Virus record (IMG/VR): IMGVR_UViG_3300032268_001605
Span: 64,001 to 128,000 of that record
From: a virus
Length of the DNA: 64,000 nt
Direction: 5' to 3' (one strand)
Positions 42,035 to 44,220 of this stretch are shown in pieces. Every line of letters begins with the position of its first letter. Position 1 is the first letter of the stretch. A model generated the notes under the pieces. That model saw only the letters and a list, made by a program, of their open reading frames with translations, did not search any database and was not told the DNA's origin. A program made the translations under genes and the position numbers.

Positions 42035-42377
42035 TCATAAATTAATCTTGATTTCCTTATAAGGATATTTTCTATTTTTATAGAACTTTTCTCTTTCTTT
42101 ATAGTGCTTATAAAGAATATTATTCATATTAGATGGTTCGAACACATCTACAATGTCAAATATAGTTGCGATTTTTTTATCCGAATGTTTCCTGAGTGCG
42201 CGACCAATTGATTGAATAATTATCTGTTCCGATTTAAAAGAATCAGCAAATATTACATTGAATATAGCGGTGATACTCACACCTGTCCCTAGTGTACCCT
42301 ACTCAGTAGGAGGCGACTAAAATCTTAGTCACCCCCTTCTCCTTGATTATTTTTCTTTTATCTATAATTTTAGCCAT
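42035..42377 (-). CDS. uvsW: UvsW-like helicase C-terminal part (motifs V-VI), interrupted by a 7-nt coding gap
   Basis: 42377-42306 encodes MAKIIDKRKIIKEKGVTKILVASY, then TGAGTAG (42305-42299), then GTLGTGVSITAIFNVIFADSFKSEQIIIQSIGRALR...* Removing 7 nt restores motif V 'ILVASYGTL.TGVSI' (111 aa). Confidence 0.85.
42299..42336 (-). other. Candidate translational-bypass signal (5' hairpin, take-off codon, stop in hairpin loop)
   Basis: GGGGGTGACTAA-GATT-TTAGTCGCCTCC 12-bp stem, overlapping CCTAC-TGA-GTAGG stem-loop. Confidence 0.55.
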
Positions 42378-42720
42378 TTATAGTTTCTATCTTATAGTTT
42401 TTTAATTCAATATTTGACTCATTTAAATCATCTATTGATATAAATTTGTTTGTATTTCTATATTTTCTTATTAAATGCTCACTGAAATTATATATTTCTT
42501 TAAACTTTCTCATAGACTCAATTACGACCTCTGTACCATTTATATGAATTAATTTTAGTTTGACACCTTCTCTCTTCTTTCTATTTTTCATTTTATTCAA
42601 ATAATTTTCAGATTTCCAAAGTAGTTTTATTTTCTCCCCAGCATCTCTTCTCTTTTCTTCATCTTTATTAATTTTCTCCATTTTATTTCTGAAATCTATT
42701 CTAAACCCCTGTGGTAAATA
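42370..42720 (-). pseudogene. Homing-endonuclease relic (basic helical and NUMOD1-like DNA-binding C-terminus, no catalytic domain)
   Basis: Basic repeats 'GEKIKLLWKSENYLNKMK' and 'NGTEVVIESMRKF...F'. Its stop overlaps the ATG of the uvsW C-part (AATGGCTAA). Confidence 0.6.
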
Positions 42721-44220
42721 TTATCTAAATTTCTTAATAAAATCATCATCTATATCATCATCAGAATCAATATCTTTTGCTAATTTATATTTACCATTAC
42801 TTAATAAAATTTTAAAATCGGATTCAACTTCAACTTCATAATCACCAAAGTTTAAAATAGTATATTCTACTTCCACTTTTGTCACCTCCATTTGCTTCTT
42901 AATCTCCTCCCTCTTCTTATTATTAACTTCACCATCAATATAATAAATATCTTTGTTCTTTAAGTCCTCTTTCAACTTATTATAAATCTTAGTACCATAA
43001 TCAATCGTGTGGAATAGTAGTAATGTGTTTGAATCACATTTATCTACCAATTTCTTAATAAACTCTATCCTTTTATCTGAAGACTGAATGATTTCTTTTT
43101 CTAATCTAAAAGCATCTGCACCAGCTCCCATCTTCTTAATATAATTCAATTTCTCTGAAATATCTGAGTTAGCGTGATTTAGTATGACTGCTTTAATTGT
43201 CATTGGTGTAATTGTTCCGGATTCAACTAGGGTGGAGGCTTCTATCTTGGTTACATTTGGTCCTAAGACACTTTGTATAGTTAGTATCTCTAAACTATCA
43301 TCAGAGGGAAAAGTACCTGATACACCAAACCTGTTATAAGCGTGACCGAATGTTCTTTTAAGAATTGTTGTTAAGGTTGCTGCCTTTGCTAAATGTGCTT
43401 CATCGCAGGCAACAGTATGGAATTGTTGAAAGAATTCTTTTGGGAATTTTTCTAATGATTGATAACAACCGATATAAACATTTGGTTGTTCGGGTCCGAA
43501 ATACTTTCTCGGTTTATCAGACATAATTTCCTCCATTCTTATTTGACACGGATTATAATTGGGATTTTCTTCTAATATCAAATCGAGTTTACGTTCTCTA
43601 AAATCAACTTTATCGGAATATTTATCTAAGAAGTTAAATCCATAATTATATTCCAAAATATTTTCGTAAAATTGGGTTACTAATGTTATCGAAGGCACAA
43701 TTATCAAAAATTTGGCACCTTCATCCATATTTCTTAGTATATAAAACATAACGATTGATATAACTAAAGATTTACCACCTGATGTAGCAACTTCCGCCAT
43801 ACAATATCTATTCTTCAATATTTTATAAGCTGTTTCTATTTGGTAGTCATAAGGCATAAAAGGGATCCAATTGCCTGTTTTCTTATCTTTCATTTTATGG
43901 TCTTTAAAAAATTCTTGACAGAAATCCTTTACTGACTCTAATGTTATATTTCTATTTAGTGGGAATTCTTCCCTATTATCAATATTGAATGTTACACCTA
44001 TTTCTTTACAGGCTTTTAGACATTCTCTCCATAGACCGAGATTAACTTTACCATTTTCGAAATGTGAAACATCACCATTCCATACTCCCATCTTTACAGC
44101 GGGTAGGAATCTCCAACCTTTTATTTTTCTAGTTAACCAAATTTTCACTTGGTGATATTCCACTCTGGTGGATTTTGAAACTATTAATTTTTCTTGATTT
44201 GTATCATATTTAAAATTCAT
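42721..44220 (-). CDS. uvsW: UvsW-like SF2 helicase, N-terminal part (motifs Q to IV) with a Hint-like C-terminal tail
   Basis: PYDYQ, EVATSGGKS, IIVPSITLVTQ, YQSL, DEAH, GVSGT, LLLF, YYIDGEV...RE.IK. Motifs V and VI absent. Confidence 0.9.
   Translation of the reverse strand: MNFKYDTNQEKLIVSKSTRVEYHQVKIWLTRKIKGWRFLPAVKMGVWNGDVSHFENGKVNLGLWRECLKACKEIGVTFNIDNREEFPLNRNITLESVKDFCQEFFKDHKMKDKKTGNWIPFMPYDYQIETAYKILKNRYCMAEVATSGGKSLVISIVMFYILRNMDEGAKFLIIVPSITLVTQFYENILEYNYGFNFLDKYSDKVDFRERKLDLILEENPNYNPCQIRMEEIMSDKPRKYFGPEQPNVYIGCYQSLEKFPKEFFQQFHTVACDEAHLAKAATLTTILKRTFGHAYNRFGVSGTFPSDDSLEILTIQSVLGPNVTKIEASTLVESGTITPMTIKAVILNHANSDISEKLNYIKKMGAGADAFRLEKEIIQSSDKRIEFIKKLVDKCDSNTLLLFHTIDYGTKIYNKLKEDLKNKDIYYIDGEVNNKKREEIKKQMEVTKVEVEYTILNFGDYEVEVESDFKILLSNGKYKLAKDIDSDDDIDDDFIKKFR

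Follow-up and report, generated by a model that had tools for sequence, protein, structure and literature searches.

A UvsW-like helicase gene in the window, by which we mean the whole stretch of 64,000 nucleotides (nt) analysed here (positions 64,001 to 128,000 of the IMG/VR virus record IMGVR_UViG_3300032268_001605), is divided by a cassette that adds a protein segment on either side of the break and holds the remnant of a homing-endonuclease gene between them. The second helicase fragment is itself interrupted by 7 nt that shift it into another reading frame. The cassette and the split are certain for practical purposes. We consider that the locus is probably a degraded mobile HNH cassette resembling the T4 39/mobA/60 element, in which ribosomes would cross the 7-nt gap by a short hop of peptidyl-tRNA-Tyr. 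The element would be a mobile homing-endonuclease cassette targeting one site, between helicase motifs IV and V, in the UvsW-like helicase of huge freshwater phages. Its unit would comprise an acidic tail of 52 amino acids (aa), an HNH gene (here its last 103 codons), a new start codon opening a basic head of 13 aa, and a non-coding gap placed 24 codons into the C-fragment, at the conserved ...VASY-GTL... junction.

Anatomy of the split helicase gene

The first open reading frame (ORF) of the gene (42721–44220; all parts of the gene lie on the minus strand) encodes 499 aa of a superfamily 2 (SF2) helicase, matching Pfam DEAD (2.1e-12), Pfam ResIII (4.7e-10) and the PHROG 16 DNA helicase (2.6e-48); Pfam UvsW_N gave just 0.005, under its cut-off. 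Using tblastn, we found the nearest relatives among unsplit orthologs in unannotated genomes of uncultured phages of about 640 kb (61% and 59% identity), and T4-like phage genes annotated as uvsW or DNA helicase aligned at about 25% identity over 95% of the query. The DEAD/ResIII core, the C-terminal helicase motifs and the similarity to T4 UvsW mark the gene product as a UvsW-like SF2 helicase.

Across the site of the break, unsplit orthologs read ...EMEKT-DGxVKVL(I/V)AS(Y/F)GTLSTGVSI.... The window protein matches them for 447 aa, from the N-terminus to ...EIKKQMEVT (42880–44220), after which 52 added residues, the tail (42724–42879), precede a stop codon (42721–42723). Downstream lies the endonuclease remnant of 103 aa (42370–42681), whose stop overlaps an ATG at 42377 (ATGGCTAA). 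This ATG opens 13 extra residues, the head (42339–42377), which are followed by KGVTKILVASY and then directly by TGA, so that the ORF ends after 24 codons (42306–42377). The helicase sequence resumes 7 nt on, in the +1 frame, as GTLGTGVSI...QSIGRALR..., and TAG abuts its first codon; this C-fragment of 87 aa (42038–42298, with its stop at 42035–42037) contains motifs V–VI and is 80% identical to an unsplit ortholog. Because of the 7-nt gap (UGAGUAG, 42299–42305), ordinary translation cannot make the C-fragment. The proposed take-off codon is UAC (42306–42308), the Tyr codon at the end of ...VASY. The gap itself contains the UGA stop (42303–42305) and the proposed near-cognate landing codon UAG (42299–42301).

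The first-pass annotation of this DNA had described a split helicase, its homology stopping at ...QMEVT and resuming at KGVTKILVASY on a separate ORF, with an acidic addition on the N side and a basic one on the C side. The ortholog alignments bear out the split, and the net charges of tail and head are −7 and +3. That the second ORF carries the rest of the helicase holds for KGVTKILVASY but not beyond, the ORF having 24 codons only and the remainder lying past the gap. The homing-endonuclease gene placed inside the helicase gene is present as a 103-aa remnant only, with no nuclease domain.

An assembly artefact was considered and ruled out, as contigs from three other runs, two of them from other studies, span 42299–42305 with zero indels: X3 (record 5, 42015–42391) comes from the same study as the source, X5 (record 12, 42057–42356) comes from another study and shows 21 differences, and X6 (record 20, 42277–42705) has just 22 nt on one side of the gap. 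An alternative genetic code was also ruled out, since no code makes a 7-nt insert sense. All three stops are used in the 139-kb viral contig (29.8% G+C) in which the window sits, stop-to-stop frames of at least 300 codons ending in TAA (36), TAG (10) or TGA (8), and ARAGORN found no tRNA gene in this contig. A group I or II intron or another known RNA was sought at 41800–43300 and rejected, Rfam returning chance-level snoRNA and miRNA rows only at E ≤ 10.

The gap and the frame beyond it

Related loci were collected by scanning viral contigs with protein patterns from the N-part (42 loci), by a scan with the tail alignment (25 loci) and by a metagenome scan with tail-specific patterns (at least 69 loci). 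Removal of duplicates left 43 distinct split alleles with a readable junction, and the allele counts given here are of distinct alleles among the matches listed, which need not stand for independent events. The head ORF has 24 codons in all 43. The post-gap ORF has 86–90 codons in all but one complete allele (L127, 99 codons); it is cut short in L097 and L129, in L097 at least by the end of the contig. Between tail and head there are 2–16 nt in many alleles, about 1 kb with an ORF of 303–323 aa in 18, and endonuclease remnants in seven including the window. In one locus (L120:2707-3216), which keeps the cassette and a 7-nt gap, one stop codon falls in frame within the N-fragment (...IIQN*DKRL...); a nonsense mutation, a sequencing error and recoding are each possible.

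In 37 of the 43 alleles, extra nucleotides occur exactly between the Tyr of ...VASY and the Gly of GTL.... This gap measures 7 nt in 22 alleles, 4 nt in four, 8 nt in three, 10 nt in two, and 5, 6, 9, 11, 17 or 21 nt in one each. The codon before it is Tyr (TAC/TAT) in 37/37 gapped alleles, and Phe replaces Tyr in two of the six ungapped ones. There are 22 distinct gap strings, of which 20 begin with a stop codon (TGA in 28 alleles, TAG in 4, TAA in 3). As in MobA-type elements, the non-coding gap starts right behind a take-off codon, the next codon being a stop (UAC then UGA in the window). The two strings without an initial stop are CAAC and the 21-nt gap, in which a CCCC-GAAA-GGGG mini-hairpin comes first. 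Every string ends in NAY or TAR, the final codons by allele being GAC 10, TAT 6, TAC 6, TAA 5, AAC 5, GAT 4 and TAG 1. The gaps that would preserve the frame (6, 9 and 21 nt) hold stops.

The post-gap frame is under purifying selection. In 595 pairs from 35 gapped alleles, the C-part shows a mean proportion of nonsynonymous differences (pN) of 0.19 and a mean proportion of synonymous differences (pS) of 0.80, with a median ratio of nonsynonymous to synonymous substitution rates (dN/dS) of 0.11; in the other two frames of the same DNA pN exceeds pS. The 24-codon head ORF has a median dN/dS of 0.10. Between the window and the X5 strain, which has the identical gap, 17 of the 19 C-part differences affect the third positions of codons in the frame after the gap. 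These values speak against a decaying helicase gene in which the gap would be a scar that disables the gene, production of the C-part having ceased. Such decay might be suspected from the endonuclease, already a remnant and smaller still in one strain, and from the in-frame stop in the N-part of L120. It is nevertheless highly improbable, given that no complete locus shows a break in the 87-codon frame behind the gap and that the gap is kept across deeply diverged alleles.

A conserved C-part could also be made without any recoding, as the last of three separate polypeptides that assemble non-covalently: the N-fragment, the 24-aa peptide, and a C-fragment starting from GUG at 42278–42280 (the Val of GTGVSI). 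The ORF 42035–42280 does start with GTG, an AGGGA lies 5 nt upstream, and 19 of the 37 gapped alleles use GTG as the codon for that Val. Sixteen of the 35 gapped alleles, however, lack ATG, GTG and TTG throughout the opening 25 codons of the C-part, so that an independent start could not serve all of the alleles. The six codons before the Val (G-T-L-S/G-T-G) are moreover kept as protein, the Ser switching between TCN and AGY, and a start at the Val would cut motif V. We regard three separate polypeptides as an improbable arrangement.

A conserved hairpin and the proposed ribosomal hop

Upstream of the take-off codon, the messenger RNA (mRNA) of the head ORF forms a hairpin of 12 base pairs (bp) with a GAUU loop (42309–42336). 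Columns 42–53 of the head alignment pair with columns 58–69, and the 3' arm ends 1 nt before the Tyr codon. Among 41 distinct sequences, 93.3% of the cells are standard pairs, compared with 35–56% when the partner is slid by 1–3 columns, and none of 500 shuffles equalled the observed pairing or covariation score. The pair 48–63, which joins synonymous third positions (Ala GCN and Val GUN), occurs as GC (17), AU (12), GU (5) and UA (5). The window hairpin has a minimum free energy (MFE) of −18.1 kcal/mol, with z = −3.0 for a 76-nt stretch. The hairpin is linked to the gap: the MFE averages −17.2 kcal/mol in 35 gapped alleles (range −13.5 to −20.9) and −6.5 kcal/mol in six ungapped ones (range −2.8 to −11.1), with no overlap (Mann-Whitney U = 0, uncorrected for relatedness). 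The same codons of 14 element-free orthologs have a mean MFE of −3.5.

We propose that a ribosome reaches the UAC (Tyr) codon with UGA in its A site, at which point the 3' arm of the 12-bp hairpin would still be inside the ribosome. The hairpin would re-zip while the mRNA slides forward, the peptidyl-tRNA-Tyr would re-pair on the UAG located 7 nt downstream, and decoding would restart at GGU. The product would read ...VASY-GTLGTG..., a junction identical to that of the unsplit orthologs. Wills et al. (bioRxiv 2024) discuss what drives forward bypass and attribute it, in the title of their preprint, to pairing of the mRNA exiting the ribosome; the geometry of the hairpin fits such a drive. In Escherichia coli, low-level tRNA hopping over stops has been described (Weiss et al. 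1987; O'Connor et al. 1989, both as cited in the available text of bioRxiv 10.1101/2022.08.31.505936). Judging from that text, those events resemble the proposed one as short forward hops of a peptidyl-tRNA over a slow-to-decode stop to a similar codon nearby; they are non-programmed and of low efficiency, whereas the site in the helicase is conserved and has a dedicated hairpin in an essential-looking gene. A second small stem in the window (CCUAC-UGA-GUAGG) could place the take-off and landing codons on opposite arms. A hop between identical codons, from UAC to the next UAC (GG-UAC-A), was considered and ruled out, as it leads into the wrong frame.

Several observations weigh against such a hop. 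A cognate Tyr codon (TAC/TAT) is available for landing in only 12 of the 37 gapped alleles, and the other landing codons (GAY, AAC or TAR, including UAG in the window) match at two of three positions. If TAA and TAG can serve as landing codons, the ribosome could land in frame too early wherever a gap opens with one of them. A +1 or +2 shift could read 16 of the 22 gap strings, adding 1–3 residues. This openness to a single forward shift, together with UGA behind the shift codon in 28 of 37 alleles, is what would favour a programmed +1/+2 frameshift of the prfB type at the Tyr-stop, the rest of the gap being translated and no hop taking place. A prfB-type +1 shift needs an open +1 frame, and that of the window reads GAG and then TAG. 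With its TGAGTAG, six of the 22 strings are closed to any single forward frameshift, and the gap lengths span all three residues modulo 3. A frameshift thus appears very unlikely to be the way across.

The gap might otherwise be removed from the mRNA as a mini-intron, by editing or by cutting and ligation, and ordinary translation would follow. The precision of the insertion, 4–21 nt at a single phosphodiester position, would suit such a process, and local hairpins are present. The features that are conserved, namely the Tyr codon, any of the three stops and the NAY/TAR end, suit a ribosomal event instead, and no RNA family matches the region at 41800–43300. We know of no intron mechanism for 4–21 nt in phages or bacteria. 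Among the sequencing runs listed as containing the stretch, none is of RNA. Removal at the RNA level is accordingly a poor prospect, and a ribosomal hop remains our preferred reading of the alignments, one that we hold to be rather probable.

Mobility of the cassette

The 103-aa ORF of the window corresponds to residues 223–325 of the 325-aa protein encoded at the same place in one relative (L025; 59% identity, E 3e-32), and is thus the C-terminal third only of an HNH homing-endonuclease gene. The L025 protein matches the HNH endonuclease family phrog_12434 (9.9e-18), with the HNH match at residues 15–135, and the intact intervening ORFs of relatives match HNH endonuclease and homing endonuclease PHROGs through their N-terminal part. 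The HNH nuclease domain is absent from the window ORF at 42370–42681, which has no Pfam match. In the X5 strain, a 164-nt deletion, with one C in its place, removes part of the remnant at 42538–42703; the remnant is therefore still shrinking in the population.

We inferred a quick maximum-likelihood tree from the host gene, leaving out the cassette (50 rows, each with at least 200 N-part and 80 C-part residues). Alleles with the element and alleles lacking it are intermingled in this tree, as in the pairs L080 and L037 (97 in the Shimodaira–Hasegawa-like approximate likelihood-ratio test, SH-aLRT), L096 and L008 (99), and L112 and L041 (92). The first-pass annotation had taken the tails for added rather than native segments, and the tail-and-head segment is missing from 21 of the 22 aligned unsplit orthologs. 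It had also foreseen that unsplit orthologs might carry the segment as a native insertion, and one contig (L014, the same as L047) does hold it in frame, as a 68-aa insertion with neither endonuclease nor gap; among the matches listed, this is the sole tail-bearing locus that runs on in frame. We read it as a secondary fusion rather than a native insertion because it sits beside an element-free allele (L017; SH-aLRT 99) in the host-gene tree. The tail motif lies at this one helicase site in all of the at least 84 loci found with the tail-specific patterns (duplicates and the window included), and the expectation that the same tail pair would turn up on other split genes was not borne out among the matches listed. 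On these grounds, the locus represents an endonuclease-borne split of a host gene with conserved added tails.

An ORF of at least 300 aa lies between the two parts in 18 alleles, 17 of which have the gap. The exception, L091, is ungapped with a full-length ORF, and has Phe and several other substitutions at the site. From this association and the analogy with T4 mobA and gene 60, the gap probably serves to shield the genome that carries the cassette against the cassette's endonuclease.

Tails and heads as possible intein remains

The same helicase family contains a true split intein at motif II (DE/C), which we found at 11 loci, duplicates included (L026:1607-2854, also L027–L029, L033, L034, L044, L045, L050, L066 and L067). 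Its N-intein has 100 aa, with Cys1 and TGNHK, and matches Pfam Hint (3.1e-11) and Intein_splicing (7.7e-9); a 285-aa endonuclease (phrog_15427) follows, and then a C-intein of 35 aa, whose final ...VSN precedes Cys. In L045, a single gene contains this intein as well as the tail/gap cassette. A third insertion site, at about ortholog residue 206–218, is occupied in L040 (L040:1501-3150) by another non-splicing tail pair without a gap, in the order of an acidic tail of about 45 aa ending in ...STDEI, a 414-aa HNH endonuclease (phrog_559, 1.5e-62) and a head that has MKIKRISKIKKEEP at its start.

When the tail profile was aligned with that of the true split N-intein using hhalign, the two matched with a probability of 90.2% (E 1.5e-6), columns 3–47 of the tail lying on columns 39–95 of the 100 of the intein. 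Two deletions, of 4 and 8 columns, interrupt the match, and the longer one, in the tail, lies over ...TGNHK..., the TxxH block of the true N-intein. The local score was 31.2; 100 column shuffles each way gave a mean of 10.7 and maxima of 17.4 and 18.6, and the reversed profile 8.9. We also modelled the 84-aa insert of the fused allele L014 with AlphaFold. Three MAFFT attempts at aligning the fused allele misplaced heads or tails, and the insert alone was folded with a tails-only alignment. The model has four short strands and a helix. Compared with 48,161 PDB representatives, it yielded 22 chains at Z ≥ 2, of which 19 are inteins or Hedgehog Hint domains (best Z 3.9, over a half-domain only and from a mediocre model); the Npu DnaE N-intein is matched at its residues 46–99.

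Against this, the Hint similarity depends on a single pair of profiles and on Z scores that are weak (≤ 3.9), and the insert model is mediocre, with a predicted local distance difference test score (pLDDT) of 65.7 overall, 70–83 over the tail and below 55 over the head, for which there was no alignment depth. The tail has no relevant match in Pfam, PHROGs, a profile search of PDB sequences or Foldseek: no Pfam Hint or Intein family matched the N-part, the L014 insert or ten tails at E values up to 10, the motif II N-intein serving as the positive control for Pfam Hint, and the Foldseek comparison of the insert model with the PDB, a check suggested by the first-pass annotation, returned nothing at E ≤ 0.001. 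The half-Hint tail of that annotation is accordingly supported in part, by the profile alignment and weakly by the fold matches, and not by the family searches. We consider it likely, from these alignments, that the tail is the decayed second half of a split N-intein. The correspondence of the head to the first strand of the C-intein goes no further than a resemblance.

The absence of splicing residues, claimed from the outset, was confirmed. The tail starts with K-x-K/E-V-E; neither an alignment of 10 tails nor one of 47 has an invariant Cys or Ser at that junction, and no TxxH block is present in the window or in 46 related tails. The 13-aa head has no terminal Asn or His-Asn, whereas the true C-intein of the relatives ends in ...VSN followed by Cys. 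Splicing is not expected, since Cys1, TxxH and a terminal Asn with a +1 nucleophile are all missing. The tail would thus be what is left of a split N-intein's second half, and the head would be like the start of a C-intein, all residues required for splicing having been lost.

In tblastn searches and MAFFT alignments, the tail (KVEYTILNFGDYEIEV...KSDF.ILLS.G) was repeatedly placed on the helicase's own KVLVASYGTLSTGV...KSEQIIIQSIG segment. An extension of the N-part in tblastn, at query residues 468–476, was likewise taken for a spurious alignment of the tail with the motif V region. The tail may really mimic the strand that it replaces, although we treated the alignment as spurious.

Assembly of the fragments

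The tail and the head might help the two fragments to reassemble non-covalently into one RecA2 domain, as the first-pass annotation had proposed in describing them as a clasp. We modelled a complex for a gap-free split allele (L032), combining the N-side RecA2 half with its tail (170 aa, 41-row alignment) and the C-fragment (111 aa, 13-row alignment). The interaction prediction score from aligned errors (ipSAE) was 0.76, the best of three controls giving 0.00. This value is reached by 116 of 157 solved complexes and by 2 of 215 mismatched pairs, a rough guide only as our own alignments were supplied. Contact agreement between runs was at least 93% and the pLDDT of the partners at least 77. The predicted interface comprises residues 1–27 of the C-fragment, including the whole head, and residues 114–130 and 155–163 of the N-fragment, both in the tail. 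The best-defined contacts are those of the RecA2 beta-sheet, as solved helicases would teach a model. A passing score would be expected for two halves of a RecA2 fold that resemble solved helicases, and the model does not isolate the tails. The clasp is thereby upheld as far as the head and much of the tail lie in the interface of a complex that passes, but the score belongs mostly to the RecA2 sheet. Non-covalent docking aided by the tails is plausible and receives weak support from the model.

Relation to known systems

The known element that the cassette most resembles is that of T4 39/mobA/60. According to the available text of Manning & Atkins (bioRxiv 10.1101/2022.08.31.505936), the HNH endonuclease of the T4 MobA element interrupts Topo2L at a single position and brings along conserved C- and N-terminal extensions (CTE/NTE), and a 50-nt bypass guards against nicking by MobA. 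As far as that text goes, matched or wobble-matched take-off and landing codons characterize T4-type cassettes, MobA elements occur in Topo2L only, and the T4 bypass cassette "remains unique". The UvsW cassette is comparable, on the same partial source, in that an HNH element splits the gene of an essential DNA enzyme at a fixed site with conserved extensions, the gap lies a few dozen codons into the second ORF, right behind a take-off codon whose next codon is a stop, with a stem-loop upstream and a nascent peptide that is short and conserved. In both systems the gap outlives the endonuclease, and gap-less and re-fused alleles occur. The same source gives the order of MobA decay as loss of the endonuclease, loss of bypass and re-fusion of the halves, and all of these states are seen among the UvsW cassette alleles.

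The two systems also differ. The host gene here is a helicase and not Topo2L, the gap has 4–21 nt (7 in the window) and not 50, take-off is from Tyr and not from Gly or Asp, and the landing codon is often near-cognate. For its helicase host gene and 7-nt gap, in place of Topo2L and a 50-nt cassette, the locus does not fall fully within the MobA-type class. The upstream hairpin is strongly conserved in the UvsW cassette, while the 5' stem-loop is reported in the available text as not conserved in MobA cassettes. The tails of the UvsW cassette are probably derived from a Hint domain, and bypass is inferred here from sequence.

The first-pass annotation had placed the locus between fractured genes with split inteins and Aeh1 nrdA/mobE. 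In Aeh1 too, a free-standing HNH endonuclease fractures an essential gene and the tailed pieces reassemble non-covalently, according to the available parts of Edgell et al. 2010 (PMC2988022) and bioRxiv 10.1101/2022.08.31.505936; those parts report no coding gap and no intein ancestry of the tails for Aeh1, and the T4 element is closer. Fractured genes with split inteins, in the available part of Dassa et al. 2009 (PMC2677866), have the same order of N-part with tail, endonuclease, and head with C-part, with an acidic N side and a basic C side. The motif II split intein (L026, L033, L044 and L045) is a true example of such a fractured gene in the same helicase family, and the tail and head of the UvsW cassette, with about 65 aa together, amount to about half of its 135 aa.

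We found no literature report of a split UvsW gene with a coding gap, the supplementary tables of Manning & Atkins, which could list non-topoisomerase cases, lying outside the material covered. Whether the cassette constitutes a second, independent phage family of programmed bypass, consisting of an HNH cassette, a non-splicing half-intein pair and a hairpin-driven Tyr hop over 4–21 nt, appears evenly balanced to us. Such a family would differ in its gene, its tRNA, its many very short gap lengths and its strongly conserved exit-side hairpin. If this holds true, the gap lengths and landing codons found in nature would amount to a ready mutational scan of the rules of bypass, and the cassette would offer a simple, tunable system for the drive of forward mRNA slippage and the strictness of landing-codon pairing. 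The tails would show inteins decaying into the CTE/NTE docking tails of MobA/MobE splits, and the cassette would link three strategies of homing endonucleases inside essential genes, namely inteins, added docking tails and bypass. For annotation, such genes are called as a 499-aa helicase with orphan fragments, and motifs V–VI are lost.

Neighbouring genes

A ClpP protease gene (Pfam CLP_protease 2e-69) lies just upstream of the helicase gene, at 44717–45385 on the minus strand, and is syntenic in L001 and L002. Beside it, a 169-aa protein encoded at 45484–45993 on the plus strand consists of extremely acidic D/E repeats followed by SQ/AQ 42-nt repeats. On the other side of the helicase gene, a baseplate-spike-like protein (40359–42026; Phage_base_V 1e-6) adjoins a 1200-aa ORF at 36741–40343 on the plus strand, which has no Pfam match and contains about nine tandem units of 138 nt (46 aa) at 38658–39961 (...NLNLGSVTNALKSINASAIAP...).

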